In this document: positions 30,580 to 59,550 of the stretch, piece after piece
How positions within the stretch are numbered: position 1 is the first letter of the stretch
Layout of the letters: every line of letters starts with the position of its first letter
From: a virus
Direction: 5' to 3' (one strand)
Length of the DNA: 64,000 bases
IMG/VR virus record: IMGVR_UViG_3300005337_000003
Span: 32,001-96,000 of that record
Made by a program: the position numbers and the translations under genes
The notes under the pieces: model-generated
What the model was told of the DNA's origin: nothing
Databases searched by the model: none
Seen by the model: the letters and a program-made list of their open reading frames with translations, nothing else

Positions 30580-32202
30580 TCAGAGTGAATTACCTGTGAC
30601 AGGATTACGCATAACCACCTTGAGTAATTTTGTAGCGTCGCGAACCCACAACATTGGGTACATCTGCTCCATAAAGCATGTCCAGCCGTTGGTACGGTCG
30701 CCCTGGAACCCGGAACGTTTACCGGTATAATCCATGCTGCCGTTCTTATACCACCACCTGAAGCCTGGATCCCACTTGAATTTCTTCAGGCGGATATTCT
30801 CCTTAGAGGTATCGATATCCTGGATGATGTAGCTGTATGAACTCAACGGATAACCATCCACGATCGGGTTCTCAATGGTGTTCATTTCCACCGGATCGAA
30901 TGCGGGGTTAATACGGAACCGTAGCACAGCGTAGTGTGGTATAATGATCTCCCGGAAGTAGTAACCAAAGCCCAGGTCCATGCCGGTACCTGACACAGTG
31001 TTAGTGCCGGACTTGTCAGCGTTGACGATCCAGCCCAGACCAGCCAATTCTTTAGAGATCAGGCTGTTCACCTGTTGTGAACCTGCAACACCTGTCCATA
31101 CCTCCAGGATCCTGGTAGGCATAGCGGGCTGTGTTGCTTCCTTGTTGGTGAAATATTTGTAGATCGCGGTGCGCAGCAGATCCAGGCTAAAATAACCACG
31201 GTTATAGATAAACTTGTAAGAGCTATCCAGCTGCTTCCACATACCTGTAGCCATGCGGGCATCGTCAGGGCCACTGCCTCTTACGGTACCGCCCTTACCC
31301 CATATACAATAGTTCTCAATGTCGAGAGCGATCTTGTTCATGTGAGCTGCCTCCATCTTGGTGAGAAATGTCATATTCAGAGTGCCATTCTCGCGGGCTT
31401 TCTTTACATAATCAGCACCCATGATAGTGGCCATGTCCTCAATACTTTTCACTGAAGGATCCACATTCTCCATATCGTTATGGCGCCAGATCTGTGTAAT
31501 ATTGATGCGGCCATCGCTGGTGATGCCATTGCGGGCAATCAAATCAGCCCGTGAACTTACACTGAACTCCACGTTAGCTGTTGCGGTAGGCAGTAAGTTG
31601 AAGAACTCGCGATATCCTGCCTGGATGGTAAGCTTTGAGAAATTCTGCTCGTATTCACCCTTGGCTGAACCGACACGGAAGTACTTGGTACCACCTGCCA
31701 GGTAGCGGTTGTCCAGGTATTGAACATCGTCGTTGTTGACCAACTGCACCCAATAAATGGCATTGTCGCCATTATTGATGATGTCGCGATCCGGCAGAAT
31801 ATAGAGCTCAAGGCCGGAATACTTGTCGTACGTAATGATATCGGTCTTGCCAAACTCAAGACGTGACAATTTGATCTGGAAGGGTTGACCATCAATGCCC
31901 TTAGTGGTGTTTGACGGATCAATGTCCTCCACAATAAATGGAAGATCGTACTGGGCTGGGATTTGCCAGGTGAATCTGCCGTCCAGGTTTTCTACATAAT
32001 CTGCATCGGTCATGTTGGCGCTGGCCATGGAGTACAGAGGGATATTTGCCTTCTGTTTCATCGCCCAGAGCTCTATCATGCCTATGTTGTCTGGCTGCTG
32101 GTCACCCAGCATGTGCCGGATGTGGTAAGAATCAATGTCGGACGTGGCCTTTACGCTTACGTCGCGCATGAATATGCCATTATTTAAAACGGGTGTGCTC
32201 AT
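30580..32202 (-). CDS. Major capsid protein, 540 aa
   Basis: Position terminase-portal-scaffold-MCP; crAss-like MCP motifs (LEIYILP-like segment, LKVVMRNPVTG end); strong leader and terminator. Confidence 0.85.
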   Translation of the reverse strand: MSTPVLNNGIFMRDVSVKATSDIDSYHIRHMLGDQQPDNIGMIELWAMKQKANIPLYSMASANMTDADYVENLDGRFTWQIPAQYDLPFIVEDIDPSNTTKGIDGQPFQIKLSRLEFGKTDIITYDKYSGLELYILPDRDIINNGDNAIYWVQLVNNDDVQYLDNRYLAGGTKYFRVGSAKGEYEQNFSKLTIQAGYREFFNLLPTATANVEFSVSSRADLIARNGITSDGRINITQIWRHNDMENVDPSVKSIEDMATIMGADYVKKARENGTLNMTFLTKMEAAHMNKIALDIENYCIWGKGGTVRGSGPDDARMATGMWKQLDSSYKFIYNRGYFSLDLLRTAIYKYFTNKEATQPAMPTRILEVWTGVAGSQQVNSLISKELAGLGWIVNADKSGTNTVSGTGMDLGFGYYFREIIIPHYAVLRFRINPAFDPVEMNTIENPIVDGYPLSSYSYIIQDIDTSKENIRLKKFKWDPGFRWWYKNGSMDYTGKRSGFQGDRTNGWTCFMEQMYPMLWVRDATKLLKVVMRNPVTGNSL

Positions 32203-45857: not shown

Positions 45858-47606
45858 TTACCTGGTTACTTCCTGCCCTCCTACATAAGAAACCGTAGCT
45901 GTCCCGGTTGTTGCATATCTTATTCGCACATTAGCTCCGGCAGGTATCCAAGATACTATCTGTCCCGTTTGTCCCACCGTAAGTTGCAGTGTCACTGTTA
46001 CGCCGACACCACTTGATGATCCAAAAGGCTGCAGACTGGCCCAACTGGAACCCCCATTAGTGGAATATTCCAAAAATACAGTGGCAGCAGAAGTTCCGAC
46101 TAACAACGGGTTAGTAGTACTGCAGGTCACAAAGTAGGATACAAATGCAGGCTTCGTAGATATTGTAAATCCTGTAGAGGATGTGCTGGTGGTTACAGAC
46201 CTGGCTGGATTATTAGTAATACTCGGCGCAGCTAATGATATTGTATAATTCGGATAACTTCCTGTTATCACAATGCCGTCTCCTGCTGTTAAGCTTATGG
46301 CCGGGGCCGGAATAATTACAGAATTCCCACCACTAATCGCCAAAGTATTACCGTTAGTGGCTGAATTTGTAGTTAAGGATAAAGTCTGCAACTCGTTAGT
46401 TATACTACCATCTACTTCCGCCTGGAGGGGTATATAGCCTATGGCTGTTGTAACCTGAGCGGTTGTAGGCGTATAAGTGATCGGCTTGTAATTAGCATCA
46501 CTCTGTGCTTTAGTATAATAATTACTCAAATCTGTAGTAGGCAGCGTCACTGTGCCGCCTCCCAGGCTTAGCTGCAATGATCCTGAATTCAAGGATAAAG
46601 ACTGCAATTCATTCGAAATATTACCATCTACCTCGACCTGTAAAGGTACATAATTCAAAGCCGTAGTCACTTGCTGAGAAGTGAGTGCGGCTGTCTGTGT
46701 TGGTATAACGAAAGAACCTCCGCCAACACTCAAGGATACAGTCTGCCCGGTTATAGAAATAGCTTGTATCTCATTTGTTGGATTCCCATCAACCTCCGCA
46801 GTTAAAAATCCGCTCGGGTTACCACTCAGCGGGTAGCCATCAGTTATACCATATCCTGCCAGTGTAGTTGGCTTTCCCGTCAAAGAACTGAATGCTTGGG
46901 CTGGAATAGCTACCGAATTGCCTCCGGCTGCATATATAGAATTACCTGCTACTCCTAGTGTCGGGGAGTATGCAGAAATGAAATTAAGGGGATTTGAATA
47001 AGGATAGGGCGTATAGGTTAAGGCGCCATTAATATCAGCAGCAGTGACACCCGTAATGTATCCTGCATTGTTAGTCCACTGTGTAATGTTGCCTGATTTA
47101 TTAGTGAACGTCATGACATTGTTGCTTGTGGCATACCCTGCAAGCGCGTGGTTTCCCCAACCAAAAGCTGAGTCCCAGTTACCTATACGTACTGCTGTAA
47201 CGCTGCTGGCTGCAGATGCAGTAAATACAGGGTCAACTTCAGAGGATATGTAACCTGCGGGATTGGCCGCCGAGTAAGGAGTATAACTCAGTGCGGAGAT
47301 TATGGCGGCTGCTGTAAGAGAGACGCCTGGGGATCCTACTAGAAGCTTGCCTCGGCTATCAACACCTAGTACTCTACTAATAGTACCGTCACTTCGAGTA
47401 GAATCATAAGACAAAAAATGGACTCGATTAGCTTTCCACTTAGCAAAAGTAGAATCCAAAGCGCTCATGGTCCAGTTATCGCTATCCAGCATATACCACT
47501 GGTAGGTTGCGTCTGGAAGGTTGATACGGGCATACATATATTGGGCCCTGGCCGCCAGGGGAATACCCAATACAAGCAAAATAATGACTATTTTTAAAAT
47601 CAGCAT
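45858..47606 (-). CDS. Fibre-like repeat protein with an apparent Sec signal peptide, 582 aa
   Basis: MLILKIVIILLVLGIPLAARA|Q; AL(S/T/N)Y(T/V)P repeats, EVDGxxxNE(I/L)Q repeats three times, TTLAGYGITD fibre motif. Confidence 0.7.
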   Translation of the reverse strand: MLILKIVIILLVLGIPLAARAQYMYARINLPDATYQWYMLDSDNWTMSALDSTFAKWKANRVHFLSYDSTRSDGTISRVLGVDSRGKLLVGSPGVSLTAAAIISALSYTPYSAANPAGYISSEVDPVFTASAASSVTAVRIGNWDSAFGWGNHALAGYATSNNVMTFTNKSGNITQWTNNAGYITGVTAADINGALTYTPYPYSNPLNFISAYSPTLGVAGNSIYAAGGNSVAIPAQAFSSLTGKPTTLAGYGITDGYPLSGNPSGFLTAEVDGNPTNEIQAISITGQTVSLSVGGGSFVIPTQTAALTSQQVTTALNYVPLQVEVDGNISNELQSLSLNSGSLQLSLGGGTVTLPTTDLSNYYTKAQSDANYKPITYTPTTAQVTTAIGYIPLQAEVDGSITNELQTLSLTTNSATNGNTLAISGGNSVIIPAPAISLTAGDGIVITGSYPNYTISLAAPSITNNPARSVTTSTSSTGFTISTKPAFVSYFVTCSTTNPLLVGTSAATVFLEYSTNGGSSWASLQPFGSSSGVGVTVTLQLTVGQTGQIVSWIPAGANVRIRYATTGTATVSYVGGQEVTR

Positions 47607-48067: not shown

Positions 48068-49726
48068 TCACAAACGAGACAATCCACTCCGTATGATCAG
48101 CTCATATAGTTCAGAGGCCCAATTCGAAGCCGAAAACTTGTCCCAGGCCAACTTAAATCCATTCTCAGCTATACTATTGCGTACGTCTGGATTTCTATAC
48201 AAAAAGTCAAGGGCTTGGGTCAATTCGTATTTGTTCCTGTAGTAAACACAATGATACATGTCCATGAAATACTTTTCGATACCTGGAAATACCCGCATAA
48301 GGGCACAACTGCCGGCAGCCATGGCTCCCAGGTTACGAGGAGTAAAATAATCCTCTACATCCCAATAATTATTCTCACAAATTACCGCATACGATTCATT
48401 ATATAATTTGGGGGTTTCACGAACGGGTAATACACCATTAACAAATCCTGATCCATAAAAAACAACCTGAGTCGGGTAATTAGCCTTCACCAACTCATAA
48501 ATTTCCTTACGACTCTCACCTCCAGGAAGATGGCTGTAGAGGTTGCCTGCGTATGCTATTTTACCCTCTTGCAGCTGTTGATTGGGTAAAAACCTCCAAC
48601 TCTGGATAGGCTCCCATATAAATTCGCATGGCTTGTTCAGGATTCTTCGATATACCTGGCGTTGTTCCCCGCTGAAGGGCACCAGGTAGAGATCCACTAT
48701 CGGTTGGAATTCAATAAAGCTTTGGGATGGGAAAGGGGAATAATCGCCGGTCCACATAACAAAAGAGGCGCCGGTTTGTTCCTTTAGGATACGACAGTGC
48801 TCCATGTACATAGATGCCTGGTATAGTATCGTATGGGGCTTAAAATCAATTGCCTTCTGTAGGTCACCATCAAACAGGAACACATTATACTTTTCCGATA
48901 AGGCCCGGCTCAAATCCCCAAAATATCCATCATCCGAAATATGCAACTGGTAGTCCATGGGGATCCATAAAAGATTCTGCCGTACTTCCTGTTCCGGAAT
49001 CGCCGTGTAATTAAAGCGCGGGTGATCCTTAAGGTAATCAGGCATCTGTAATTTATCATAAACCATAGGCTCTCCCCATAAGTCAGGATATACCGGATGC
49101 AGATCCGTATCTTCATTTCCGGGAGTCCAGGCCAGATATTTAGACATATAATTCTTACGTATCTCGGAACTATGAGAGAAAGTGCTCAACTTGTATCGGA
49201 TAGTCTTCAGGCTTTGTGCCCAGCCAAAATGAAGCACTGTACCACTCAACAACTCTGTGTCGTCTGCCATAGCTACTACACGTTCCAATCTTACCGGGTG
49301 CTGATCATCCGCGTAGTAATGCTCCCAATCTCTAAAAAAATGCATGAACCCGGCCACTTTATAATACCGAGCCTGCTTAGATTCCAATTGCTCCAGCAGT
49401 TTTTTGGGTTCCAAATATATCTCATCGGCATCGATACGGAATATCACATCGAAGTCGGCAGAATGTTTATACCTCTCACTTATATGCTCTGCTTCCGAAC
49501 CAAACCGATCGTGGGCCTCCCAAATCAGCTTATGGCCTAGAACTTCTGAAGCGATCTTAAATATTTGAGCTTCCGTATCAGGACAAGTGAGGTTAGCCGA
49601 AAACCCAAAGGATGGCTGACGACTATAAGCAATGTGGAATTTATCAACCACACCGTAAACGCTGATTAATGCCTCTCTTAAAAGTTCAGCTCCGTAATGA
49701 ATGGCACAAAACCCAAGTACTTTCAT
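48068..49726 (-). CDS. Two-domain glycosyltransferase (GT-A-like plus CgeB/GT-B-like), 552 aa
   Basis: FRIDADE (DxD); C-terminal IAYAG...LYNESYAVI...PRNLGAMAAG...YFMDMYHCVYY...ELTQALDFL pattern. Confidence 0.8.
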   Translation of the reverse strand: MKVLGFCAIHYGAELLREALISVYGVVDKFHIAYSRQPSFGFSANLTCPDTEAQIFKIASEVLGHKLIWEAHDRFGSEAEHISERYKHSADFDVIFRIDADEIYLEPKKLLEQLESKQARYYKVAGFMHFFRDWEHYYADDQHPVRLERVVAMADDTELLSGTVLHFGWAQSLKTIRYKLSTFSHSSEIRKNYMSKYLAWTPGNEDTDLHPVYPDLWGEPMVYDKLQMPDYLKDHPRFNYTAIPEQEVRQNLLWIPMDYQLHISDDGYFGDLSRALSEKYNVFLFDGDLQKAIDFKPHTILYQASMYMEHCRILKEQTGASFVMWTGDYSPFPSQSFIEFQPIVDLYLVPFSGEQRQVYRRILNKPCEFIWEPIQSWRFLPNQQLQEGKIAYAGNLYSHLPGGESRKEIYELVKANYPTQVVFYGSGFVNGVLPVRETPKLYNESYAVICENNYWDVEDYFTPRNLGAMAAGSCALMRVFPGIEKYFMDMYHCVYYRNKYELTQALDFLYRNPDVRNSIAENGFKLAWDKFSASNWASELYELIIRSGLSRL

Positions 49727-49926
49727 TCTTTTTTGCCTTGTGATTTATAAAATGTATCTGCGGTGTATAAGGCGCGAGTGATCAACTCGTCAGCTATGGA
49801 AATATTTTTAGAGGTGGCTGTCTCAGAAATAGAAGCGTAAGCCATTCCGTTTCCATATACTCCGTTCAACATAGCTATCAATACCTTAATAGCCAGTTCT
49901 TCCTTTTTTTCTGATAATTCACTCAT
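49723..49926 (-). CDS. Hypothetical protein, 67 aa
   Basis: ATGA-coupled on both sides. Confidence 0.6.
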   Translation of the reverse strand: MSELSEKKEELAIKVLIAMLNGVYGNGMAYASISETATSKNISIADELITRALYTADTFYKSQGKKE

Positions 49927-50627
49927 TGTTTTAGTTTTTCTATTTTAGCTTGCATCATATCACGGACTGTCGGCCATTCTTCTTTATCTTGCTCAATAAC
50001 CCAATCTATTCCCTTTATAGAATAAATAGTACTCGATCCCTCATGGAAAGATTTAAGTTTGTCATACATCACTGTGGGGAAGCCAAGTTCTCGACATATC
50101 GAATATATCCAGTTATCTCCGAACCAGACCTTGATGTTTTTAGGTATGGGGTATACGCAGTGGGCATGCTGCCTGTTTAAAAATATAGCTATTCCTGGAA
50201 ATCCTTCTGGGATCCACCTGTGCATATCAGATAAAAGATAATCTATATCGTGGAAAATTTCTTCCTTATTAACCTCTGTGGGAATAGGTACATAATTGGG
50301 GTATACCATCCAGAATTTTTGTAAAGCTCCTACAAAATCACGATGCAATATAATGTCAGAATTCAATATTCCCAAGTGCGTGTACTGCTCATTATTAATA
50401 AATTCCTCCAAGAAGAAATTCCAGGCAGGATTCACATAAATATTCTCAGGCCTATCTACAATCTTGACATTGGGTAGATCCCTGTAATTATCAAATAATA
50501 TCTGTATTTCTTGGTTGTAACCATTAGCAAATAACATCACATCCACCGGGTGGTGAACAACCGACTCTATGCATTGTCGTGTAACATGCGGATTATTAAC
50601 TATAGGGATGCACAATAGAAGTTTCAT
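49923..50627 (-). CDS. GT2-family glycosyltransferase, 234 aa
   Basis: LCIPIVN...ENIYVNPAWN...ILNSDI...WFGDNW...HEGSST. Confidence 0.8.
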   Translation of the reverse strand: MKLLLCIPIVNNPHVTRQCIESVVHHPVDVMLFANGYNQEIQILFDNYRDLPNVKIVDRPENIYVNPAWNFFLEEFINNEQYTHLGILNSDIILHRDFVGALQKFWMVYPNYVPIPTEVNKEEIFHDIDYLLSDMHRWIPEGFPGIAIFLNRQHAHCVYPIPKNIKVWFGDNWIYSICRELGFPTVMYDKLKSFHEGSSTIYSIKGIDWVIEQDKEEWPTVRDMMQAKIEKLKQ

Positions 50628-51196
50628 ATCTTATTTACGCACTCCTTAAACTCATCTACCGTAATTACAGTCATCACTGGTGTATTTTTTCGATTAGCCT
50701 CATACCAGGCCCAATCAAATTTTGACATGTCCAGATTCGAACCCACAGGCTCGTGTCTGGGGAAAATCAATCCACATCCTTGATCGGTATCGATAATGAA
50801 CATGACATCTTTACTTATCTCCTTTAATGCTGCCCATGCCTTCCAGCCATCTCCGTTGAGATAGGGATTCTGATGCTCTTCTGTTGGCGGTAAAAGATCA
50901 TGAACCATAACTATGCCTCCAGGACACACCTTGTAAGCGTTTAATATATCTTTAGCTACCTGATCCGATCCGTGCCAGCCATCTATAAAACAAATGTGAA
51001 ATTGCTCCTGGTTATGAGCAAAGAATTGATCGGACGTCATCTTATGCGTAGCTGCGCTACCAATATCGGGGTCTACGCCTACTTTGTAATCGCAGCTTAT
51101 CTGGCTGAAGCACTCTCCCCACTGTACTCCTATTTCAAGGTACTTTTTAGCTCCCAGCTTGTCAATAAATAACTGTAGTATTTCCCAACGTTTCAT
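50624..51196 (-). CDS. Class I SAM-dependent methyltransferase (Methyltransf_24-like), 190 aa
   Basis: YLEIGV, VGVDP, FIDGWH, GGIVMVHD. Confidence 0.85.
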   Translation of the reverse strand: MKRWEILQLFIDKLGAKKYLEIGVQWGECFSQISCDYKVGVDPDIGSAATHKMTSDQFFAHNQEQFHICFIDGWHGSDQVAKDILNAYKVCPGGIVMVHDLLPPTEEHQNPYLNGDGWKAWAALKEISKDVMFIIDTDQGCGLIFPRHEPVGSNLDMSKFDWAWYEANRKNTPVMTVITVDEFKECVNKI

Positions 51197-51924
51197 CGTA
51201 TTATCTCCTTATTATAGTTAGGGTGCAGTTTCAAAAAATCTGGAAGAGTGGTCTTATCGAAGGGTGTTGTGGTTTGCCAGATTTGACGTGACACAGGGTG
51301 TAGCCATTCTGCTTTCTCGTTGAGCCAATTGTCGTAAATGACTTTCCATTCGGGACGTAATTCCGAACGATGGCCTGATAGGCGCCATTTATACTCGGCT
51401 ATCTGGTCACTTTGTGCGTATGAAAAATGATAGACTGTTAGGTTGACTTCTCCCTGTCCGGAATTTCTTCGCAGATTAAAGAAGCGAATGGGCCTGAAGC
51501 CATCTGTGCAAACCTCATTAAATGAGCGCCAAAAATTGAGATAACCTGCCACGCCATAGGCTCTATAAGGACCTTCATATACTTCATCTAGTACTCTGGA
51601 TAAGGCCCCAGGATGGAAGACCTCATCTGAATCTACAGCAACTAACACGTCAAATCCGGCAGCGTGAGCAAATGCAGCATCCCGGTGTTGACCTTCAGAC
51701 CTGTAAACCGCATGATCCCACACCAACTTAGAACCCAAAACCCTGTAGGCAATATCATAGAGCTCACCCTCTGTGTCTGGACAAGGAATATCTGTACTGT
51801 ATCCCTGCGAACCTACAGGTGTGTAGAGTACTACAAACTTGTCTACTACAGCTTCTACACTTTTGAGGGAGGCCTCTAAATACTCTTTGCCGTAGAGGAT
51901 CGGCATATATCCGATTACTTTCAT
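51193..51924 (-). CDS. GT-A-like glycosyltransferase, paralogue of the 552-aa N-terminal domain, 243 aa
   Basis: MKVIGYMPILYGKEYL vs MKVLGFCAIHYGAELL; CPDTEGEL vs CPDTEAQI; VDSDE. Confidence 0.75.
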   Translation of the reverse strand: MKVIGYMPILYGKEYLEASLKSVEAVVDKFVVLYTPVGSQGYSTDIPCPDTEGELYDIAYRVLGSKLVWDHAVYRSEGQHRDAAFAHAAGFDVLVAVDSDEVFHPGALSRVLDEVYEGPYRAYGVAGYLNFWRSFNEVCTDGFRPIRFFNLRRNSGQGEVNLTVYHFSYAQSDQIAEYKWRLSGHRSELRPEWKVIYDNWLNEKAEWLHPVSRQIWQTTTPFDKTTLPDFLKLHPNYNKEIIR

Positions 51925-52526
51925 TTATATTGATTCATTACTTGTTTAACTTGTTCTGGTGTTAACCATTTATCTATCGCGTGGTAGGTCAAAGTCCCCA
52001 GGCTAAATACAGACTCTATTCCCCATCTAAGGCAAACATCTCTGGGCGCTAAATTGCCCAGGTTATGGTAGTACATTGTATTGCAAAAATACACATCCTC
52101 ATTTATATTCTTCCAGGGGTGGTTATTAATTACCTGCAGCATGACATTAGGATCTCTTAAGCTGAGGCCTCCGTTACCTCCCCGAGCCTGGAACCCCCAA
52201 GGGGCACCAACATAGGAGTATTCAAAAAAATCCTGTATACCAAATCTCAGGAACCCGCTATCGCTTTGAAAAATCAATACCCGATCATAATTTATATACT
52301 TTTCCCAAAAGGCAACAGAGGTTAACAATCGGTTGTATCCGCCTAACTCAGAAATCTCGCACTCAAAAAAAGTAGCTTCAGGAAACAAGTTAGACCATTC
52401 CCGTATCTTCGAACCTGTAGTCCATATCACCAGATCGTGATTGTAATCAATATAGTCCCTGTGACGATTAATCACAGGAACTATATCTACATTGCGTGTT
52501 TCTACGATTGTTAAACAGAGCTTCAT
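51921..52526 (-). CDS. DUF5672-like putative glycosyltransferase, 201 aa
   Basis: IFQSDS, YVGAPW, GGNGGLSLR, NEDVYF. Confidence 0.75.
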   Translation of the reverse strand: MKLCLTIVETRNVDIVPVINRHRDYIDYNHDLVIWTTGSKIREWSNLFPEATFFECEISELGGYNRLLTSVAFWEKYINYDRVLIFQSDSGFLRFGIQDFFEYSYVGAPWGFQARGGNGGLSLRDPNVMLQVINNHPWKNINEDVYFCNTMYYHNLGNLAPRDVCLRWGIESVFSLGTLTYHAIDKWLTPEQVKQVMNQYK

Positions 52527-52528
52527 TG

Positions 52529-52783
52529 TTACATCAAATTAGCTGCAGAGGTATATATTGCGGTACCGACAGTGGGTTCTACATAATCTGAAAACCCTTT
52601 AGTTCCGATGCCTCCTCCGTATTCAAATTTCATTCCGCCTCCACAGGCACCTGTAATTCCGCTACTTGCGACCCTTCCGTGGGAAGTGAATTCATCAGAA
52701 ATCACTTGGAATTTATTTAAAAGTGGAGAACTCTTGTATTTATCATCGTTATCCCTTAAACCTGCAGATAACGATGTTGCTAA
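52529..52783 (-). CDS. -1 frameshift extension (84 aa) of the 70-aa gene
   Basis: Startless ORF LATSLSAGLRDNDDKY...AIYTSAANLM, reachable by a -1 slip at C CCT TTT (52789-52783); stop lies 2 nt before the next ATG. Confidence 0.7.
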   Translation of the reverse strand, partial: LATSLSAGLRDNDDKYKSSPLLNKFQVISDEFTSHGRVASSGITGACGGGMKFEYGGGIGTKGFSDYVEPTVGTAIYTSAANLM

Positions 52784-52789
52784 AAAGGG
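52744..52789 (-). other. Programmed -1 ribosomal frameshift signal
   Basis: Slippery C-CCU-UUU, spacer UAGCAA, stem CAUCGUUAUC/GAUAACGAUG (52776-52767 with 52753-52744). Confidence 0.75.
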
Positions 52790-52992
52790 CGAACGGCCAC
52801 CTCCACCTGATCCAGCTGCTCTTTATAATTGACAGGGATATTCATGGCAGCGGCCATTGATGCGCTGTGTTGACTAACAGAAAGTATTGTACTTAATTCT
52901 ACAATTACCTTCGATTTAAGTCCTTCTTCTTTTTCCTGCTTGTCAGTAGGATGCCACAGGATCACATACTGAAATAGTTGTTGTTTTGTCAT
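52780..52992 (-). CDS. Hypothetical protein, 70 aa (154 aa with the frameshift)
   Basis: ORF ending in RPF-stop on the slippery site. Confidence 0.75.
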   Translation of the reverse strand: MTKQQLFQYVILWHPTDKQEKEEGLKSKVIVELSTILSVSQHSASMAAAMNIPVNYKEQLDQVEVAVRPF

Positions 52993-59463: not shown

Positions 59464-59550
59464 GGAGAGCTGGATGCATGTTGGGCTGTCCGCATGGTGG
59501 CTTTGGGTTGCCACTCTTTTCTCCGGGTTCGATTCCCGGGCTCTCCACCA
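59464..59550 (+). tRNA. Atypical tRNA (87 nt) with an 8-nt anticodon loop (UUUGGGUU; Pro-like UGG plus one nt) and encoded CCA
   Basis: Acceptor GGAGAGC/GCUCUCC-A-CCA; T arm CCGGG-UUCGAUU-CCCGG; anticodon stem GUGGC/GCCAC; D stem AUGC/GCAU with a 14-nt loop. Isotype uncertain. Confidence 0.7.

Follow-up and report, generated by a model that had tools for sequence, protein, structure and literature searches.

A probable -1 programmed ribosomal frameshift at the end of a 70-codon phage gene, with a signal conserved across an unannotated protein family

[quoted passage not shown] The T7 slippery site is G GUU UUC and is accompanied by a long-range 3' element. In lambda-like phages, the G and GT proteins, encoded between the tail tube and the tape measure, are a short and a long product with a common N-terminal part, and the -1 shift that separates them occurs across very divergent phages, the frame relationship having outlasted sequence similarity (Levin, 1993; Xu, Hendrix and Duda, 2004). 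Tail assembly chaperones account for 2397 of the 2476 frameshifts annotated by SEA-PHAGES (PMC10885494). Frameshifting also adds Ig-like domains, which are C-terminal modules that are either shifted or in frame depending on the lineage (Fraser et al., 2006, cited in PMC5009743). In E. coli dnaX, a heptamer and a hairpin yield isoforms (tau and gamma) that differ by a C-terminal interaction region; it is the shorter one that arises from the shift, to which an upstream Shine-Dalgarno-like element contributes. Lastly, efficient -1 slippage on C CCU UUU has been proven for West Nile virus (PMC11797035), and further flaviviruses from the Japanese encephalitis serogroup use a variant of the heptamer beginning with U CC (PMC5009743). 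In the NS1' system of West Nile and Japanese encephalitis viruses, the heptamer is followed, past a short spacer, by a 3' structure in the form of a pseudoknot (PMC11797035; PMC5009743).

The locus described here comes from a virus record of 129,798 bp with direct terminal repeats, of which bases 32001-96000 were analyzed (64,000 nucleotides; hereafter, the window). A 70-codon gene on the minus strand of the window very probably undergoes -1 programmed ribosomal frameshifting at its last two sense codons. As in gene 10 of T7 and T3, the shift would take place near the 3' end of a phage ORF, at an X XXY YYZ heptamer, and would produce a minor isoform with a C-terminal extension. However, the protein is an unrelated 70-aa domain rather than a major capsid protein, the site is a C CCU UUU that abuts the stop codon and is followed by a local hairpin, and the extension is predicted to be disordered and is hypervariable outside a short motif. 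The heptamer is identical to that of NS1', and the natural U CCU UUU variant is matched in two relatives (L009 and L033), but NS1' is made by eukaryotic ribosomes from an RNA virus polyprotein and is evolutionarily unrelated to the phage family. The persistence of short and long forms across very divergent phages recalls G/GT, whereas the gene neighbors are variable and no homology to the chaperone families of Pfam or PHROGs was found. As with the Ig-like domains, a C-terminal module is joined by a shift in some lineages and in frame in others, although the added part is here a disordered tail with a short motif, collagen-like in one huge phage. The gene 10, G/GT, and Ig-like cases are not homologous to the present family. 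The mechanism is a textbook one, and the family is an unannotated, widespread case of it: it has no entry in Pfam, PHROGs, or NCBIfam, and no paper describing it was found. It would constitute a large frameshift family distinct from the tail assembly chaperones.

An earlier reading of this DNA, made without database searches (the sequence-only reading), had set the gene apart from tail assembly chaperones, and both its position and its homology agree. Neither in the window nor in the relatives is it situated between the genes of the major tail and tape measure proteins, and comparison with Pfam, PHROGs, and NCBIfam gave no profile similarity to tail chaperones. Nor is the gene an HK97-fold capsid gene of the T7 gp10 type: its 0-frame product is modeled as a b-a-b-a-a-b domain of 70 aa, and the candidate for the major head protein is another gene of the window (30580-32202). 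Matches to terminase and portal, as well as to the major head protein, are present in the window.

Table 1. Features of the frameshift locus (window coordinates).
Feature	Position	Strand	Remark
0-frame ORF, 70 codons (short product)	52783..52992	-	Small alpha/beta domain ending in RPF
Slippery heptamer C CCT TTT	52783..52789	-	Third base of the Arg codon, then the Pro and Phe codons
0-frame stop TAG	52780..52782	-	Immediately 3' of the heptamer
Stem-loop, 11 bp with an 11-nt loop	52744..52776	-	Candidate frameshift stimulator
-1 frame extension, 84 codons	52532..52783	-	Would be read after the slip; predicted long product 154 aa
Conserved C-terminal motif of the extension, YTSAANL	52535..52555	-	One residue short of the end
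-1 frame stop TAA	52529..52531	-	2 nt ahead of the ATG of the next gene (52526)

The 70-codon ORF ends with the codons GTT CGC CCT TTT followed by TAG, so that C CCT TTT stands in the X XXY YYZ register of the 0 frame, as the sequence-only reading had proposed for this strand. The heptamer is separated from the hairpin by the 6-nt spacer UAGCAA, which lies within the 5-9 nt expected of a stimulatory structure. The perfect 10-bp stem noted earlier is present at this distance, and its 13-nt loop is correct when only those 10 bp are counted; folding adds one base pair (Table 1), which gives arms spanning 52776-52766 and 52754-52744, and the centroid energy is -13.6 kcal/mol. Upstream, the -1 frame reaches no further than 13 codons from the site; downstream, as also noted earlier, it stays open for 84 codons and stops just ahead of the next ATG. 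The predicted junction peptide is ...VAVRPF-LATSLS.... The earlier claim that this frame offers no start until about codon 51 holds for ATG, the first of which is codon 51 of the extension, but not for GTG, which occurs at codon 27 (window 52705). GGAGG sits 10 nt ahead of the heptamer in the window, in a dnaX-like arrangement; as a stimulator for the family, such an upstream Shine-Dalgarno-like element was rejected, as it is not enriched (14/77 loci vs. 12/77 in the control).

Within the window itself, CCCTTTT occurs 9 times against 14.8 expected, and the hairpin has a z-score of -1.63 (73 nt, dinucleotide shuffles) that was equaled by 14 of 200 shuffles; a z-score of -3.95 is obtained when a 50-nt stretch is folded. 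Taken alone, the heptamer and hairpin of the window are within chance and only suggestive. The heptamer count and the z-score of -1.63 are unremarkable, and they are what speaks for coincidence, i.e., for a -1 ORF that is never translated and a 70-aa protein that is the sole product. The significance of the site derives from comparison with its relatives.

A k-mer search with the 70-aa protein recovered 49 homologues, nearly all of which are 70 aa long and all of which have the RPF terminus. A profile search of 1.84 billion cluster representatives (clusters at 50% identity) gave 795 matches at E<=1e-3, and nearly all of the matches listed terminate at the same RPF. Viral, metagenome, and genome collections were scanned for the locus, which yielded about 100 loci, and 77 were kept after identical and truncated copies were dropped. 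The domain encoded by these 77 loci is 37-70% identical to the window protein, and their GC content ranges from 28 to 66%. As the loci share a phylogeny, the p-values given below overstate their independence. The phages that carry family members range in size from about 130 kb to 735 kb. The gene is single-copy in the genome of the window's phage, and a DNA search of GenBank phages with the region gave no match. The sequence-only reading, which had proposed a -1 programmed frameshift and looked to homologues for its disproof, survived that comparison over the 77 homologous loci.

The nine bases ahead of the stop are CGCCCTTTT in 57 of the 77 loci and CGCCCTTTC in 8, and CCCTTTY is thus retained in 65/77. 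The other 12 loci have AAA/CGT/CGA/ACA/AGA-CCTTTT, CGTTCTTTT, or AGGGCTTTT, which amount to the near-variant heptamers NCCTTTT, TTCTTTT, and GGCTTTT. In all 77 loci, the heptamer or its variant directly abuts the 0-frame stop, as the sequence-only reading requires of homologues. Codon choice at the site is nearly invariant. The terminal proline codon is CCT in 74/74 cases, compared with 22% of the internal proline codons of the same genes, and the terminal arginine codon is CGC in 65/73 cases, compared with 25% internally. A frozen wobble C in the arginine codon is a prediction of tandem slippage, since the tRNA-Pro must re-pair on CCC.

The same 154-aa protein could be made if RNA polymerase inserted an extra U in the run of five U residues, as an added U yields the exact RPF-L... 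junction and a T5 run is present in 69/77 loci. The remaining eight loci, however, have CCCTTTC followed by the stop, where the run is only T3 and the X XXY YYZ pattern is nevertheless maintained, and the frozen C CC bases lie outside of the T run. Bacterial polymerase slippage usually needs runs of roughly 8-9 or more (reviewed in PMC5009743), and a five-base run is well below this. The enrichment of hairpins downstream of the site (see below) fits ribosomal pausing, and transcriptional slippage is considered quite improbable.

A closer rival to tandem slippage is slippage that is coupled to termination. Here, the tRNA-Phe alone, in the P site with the stop codon in the A site, would move -1 onto U UU(U/C), the ratio of the products would be set by competition with the release factor, and the protein made would be the same as with tandem slippage. 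The invariant adjacency of the stop is consistent with this, as most phage frameshift sites, unlike this one, have no abutting stop; in the SEA-PHAGES tail chaperones, the mean distance between slippery site and stop is 26 nt (PMC10885494). The core CT TTY plus stop is always kept, even in the 12 loci without CCC. The identity of the stop is also skewed: TAG is used in 45/77 loci (58%) vs. 18% in long background ORFs from these loci, and TGA shows a depletion, with 7/77 (9%) vs. 41% in the same background, which suggests selection on the stop. On the other hand, slippage of the tRNA-Phe alone requires neither the frozen wobble C of CGC nor the frozen CCT, and the TAG bias could stem from the 3' context of the heptamer or from coding in the -1 frame. 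Termination-coupled slippage is accordingly rated as fairly unlikely, and tandem slippage on C CCU UUU is retained as the preferred reading. The stops counted are those at 52780-52782 of the window and at the homologous sites in L002-L097; the extension's own stop is TAA in 55/77 loci.

UAG is read by RF1 only. Given the stop that abuts the heptamer throughout and the preference for UAG, it is possible, though distinctly doubtful, that the site does more than set a fixed ratio of the 70-aa and 154-aa products, as the sequence-only reading had it, and is a termination-coupled switch. The share of ribosomes that slip could then track how active the release factor is, or the state of translation in the infected cell. 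Such a switch would tune how many of the small domains bear a disordered tail with a putative docking motif.

Downstream structure was compared between the 50 nt 3' of the site and two control segments, one 60 nt further on and one upstream. The mean z-score is -1.27 at the site vs. -0.18 and -0.27 in the controls (paired p about 1e-4), and z<-2 is reached by 26% of the loci vs. 10 and 6% in the controls. A stable hairpin is therefore missing from many members of the family. Where present, hairpins begin a few nucleotides past the stop, and their sequences are completely different between clades; in some close pairs, the pairing is maintained despite changes on both sides. The stem that the sequence-only reading sought in homologues is thus borne out as significantly enriched stability 3' of the site, but not as a conserved sequence, and some loci are without it. 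Loci with a non-canonical heptamer have stronger hairpins (median z -2.59 vs. -0.74; Mann-Whitney p=0.009, from a small sample of related loci), and the combination of a weak heptamer with a strong hairpin fits a trade-off between slippery site and stimulator.

The -1 frame downstream of the site is open in 77/77 loci, for 30-153 codons (median 64), as the sequence-only reading would have it in homologues. The two other ways of continuing past the stop were examined and rejected. Readthrough or recoding of TAG would end after 7 codons in the window, the same count as given by the sequence-only reading, and after a median of 9 codons in relatives, and ARAGORN found no suppressor tRNA, only a tRNA-Gln(ttg). 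A +1 shift or quadruplet decoding at CCC-U would lead into a frame that stays open for only 10 codons in the window and for a median of 6 among the relatives. The 87-nt tRNA-Gln(ttg) (window 59464-59550, plus strand) is the only tRNA of the window according to ARAGORN; with the +1 frame closed, it has no bearing on the frameshift.

Several properties of the -1 frame indicate that it encodes protein as a continuation of the upstream domain. Hypervariable as they are, with many Ser, Thr, Asn, Ala, and Gly residues, the extensions have in common a motif at the C terminus, roughly (A)(T)Y-x-[SNT]-A-[AS]-x-[LIV], which reads IYTSAANL in the window. Of the 77 extensions, 59 fit the strict pattern Y/F-x-[STN..]-A-[STAN..]-x-[LIVMF], and most of the remainder bear variants such as Y-x-A-N-x-[LI]. 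Pairwise dN/dS of the extension is 0.2-0.87, i.e., below 1. Furthermore, natural in-frame fusions of domain and tail occur in two relatives, P0185 and P0069 (the latter being L098). The fused P0185 is 149 aa long, with a ...VAVRCF-SSP... junction and ATYTCAAAVL... near its end, and in L098 (L098:2001-2330) CGT CCT TTC TTG GAG is read in one frame; in both, the need for a frameshift has been lost. Comparison of the nucleotide and protein sequences thus establishes the conservation of the signal, of the frame relationship, and of the motif. Coincidence, for which the values in the window alone had spoken, is scarcely credible in the face of a conserved motif in the -1 frame, a dN/dS below 1, frozen synonymous sites, and a frame that is open in every locus.

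The gene caller of the source record assigns the extension a protein of its own, 58 aa long and begun at the GTG at 52705, and an ATG or GTG also occurs within the -1 ORF of several relatives. These starts would be expected if there were two separate genes, the second begun at such a codon or by re-initiation and never fused to the first. However, 22/77 extensions have no ATG and six have neither ATG, GTG, nor TTG, while ATG is absent from the first 20 codons in 61/77. The -1 ORF overlaps the site in 77/77 loci, where it would extend the upstream product, and the positions of potential starts are not conserved. In view of the motif, the dN/dS values, the open frame, and the in-frame fusions, a downstream gene with its own initiation is very unlikely.

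Other searches with the tail were negative. A k-mer search of longer proteins found no fused form of at least 162 aa. With the extension of the window, the k-mer search returned only the extension itself and pattern scans were empty, the short motif aside. The tail motif was found in no other real ORF of the genome of the window's phage.

From these data, we infer that ribosomes slip at the heptamer, and the making of the two isoforms can be proposed as follows. Most ribosomes would end at the UAG and release the 70-aa folded alpha/beta domain. Some would move back by one base on C CCU UUU, the tRNA-Pro re-pairing from CCU to CCC and the tRNA-Phe from UUU to UUU, probably assisted by the hairpin 6 nt downstream. 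The slipped ribosomes would then read UUA GCA ACA... for 84 further codons to produce the 154-aa protein. This long form would consist of the same domain followed by a disordered tail rich in Ser, Thr, Asn, and Gly that ends in the short motif, which may be a docking site for a partner.

According to AlphaFold2, the 70-aa product is a b-a-b-a-a-b domain (pLDDT 92.7). In a fused relative, the domain is predicted with a pLDDT of about 97, and the tail, with a pLDDT of about 50 and no secondary structure, is predicted to be disordered. A joint MAFFT alignment of domain and extension placed the tails on the domain and was left out of folding. Going by these models, the long isoform would join a folded domain to a short linear motif through a disordered linker, an arrangement that could, purely by analogy, be called an adaptor-type architecture.

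No relative of known function was found for either part. Pfam, PHROGs, and NCBIfam gave no match for the domain or the extension, sequence profiles of the PDB gave only E>1, and Foldseek against the PDB and BFVD gave nothing at E<=0.001. With VIA-align, the highest Z, 6.7, was obtained for PurS, a generic alpha/beta sandwich and not a convincing relative. Gp2, an anti-CRISPR, and crAss001 vertex chains were considered and rejected, with VIA-align Z of only 3.5-4.3. From the ESM Atlas, only unnamed viral clusters were recovered.

In the window, the gene is preceded by genes for a 127-aa protein and an HTH protein and followed by genes for a DUF5672 protein (ATG at 52526), a GT2 protein, a methyltransferase, and a GT2 protein. 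The downstream genes belong to a tightly packed run on the minus strand (48068-52526) that comprises DUF5672, weak GT2 matches, a methyltransferase-like protein, GT2, and a 552-aa protein; past this run is a gene with a tail-fibre match (45858-47606). It is conceivable, though pure speculation, that the Ser/Thr-rich tail is a glycosylation substrate. The neighbors differ among relatives and include GroEL, ThyA (thymidylate synthase), RecT, an exonuclease, GTP cyclohydrolase I, and MazG, with no neighbor common to more than 5 of the about 38 long loci. A phage-encoded GroEL-type chaperonin lies directly upstream in two loci (L012:1205-2818 and L015:1363-2979; 538 aa, Cpn60_TCP1, E=3e-67). In L009, L014, and L015, a GC-rich hairpin and a T run, resembling an intrinsic terminator, are located just 3' of the stop of the extension, which suggests that the gene ends the transcription unit there.

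Gene callers split the long product into the 70-aa protein and a second ORF that is spurious or missing, and recognition of the frameshift would correct the annotation in hundreds of phage genomes. The heptamer, adjoining stop, and hairpin form a compact natural cassette of bacterial type with many natural variants. The function of a two-isoform protein, in which a domain is made with or without a disordered tail and its motif, is open to testing.

The largest huge-phage record in the collection, LR756501.1 (a 735-kb uncultured phage), has the site CGC CCT TTT TAA (L099:1493-2270). Its -1 extension is 188 codons long and contains about 25 collagen-like Gly-X-Y repeats, by which a fibrous or structural role is possible for the tail. 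The fast-evolving tail, collagen-like in this phage, may be a module for interaction with the host or within the virion.

Bacterial data also contain copies of the gene: Spirosoma sordidisoli has one on a 2-Mb scaffold, a metagenome-assembled genome (MAG) of Bacteroidia has another, and a further one is on a contig that was binned with a MAG of Gammaproteobacteria. The Spirosoma and Bacteroidia copies suggest Bacteroidota as hosts for at least part of the family. The copy in S. sordidisoli TY50 (L102:3001-3730), which may be prophage-borne, is the only one found in the genome of a cultured bacterium, and the strain is a possible experimental handle. The site in this copy, CGA CCT TTT TAA, has a GC-rich hairpin of 10 bp downstream, and the -1 frame is open for 176 codons, which may include a separate downstream gene.
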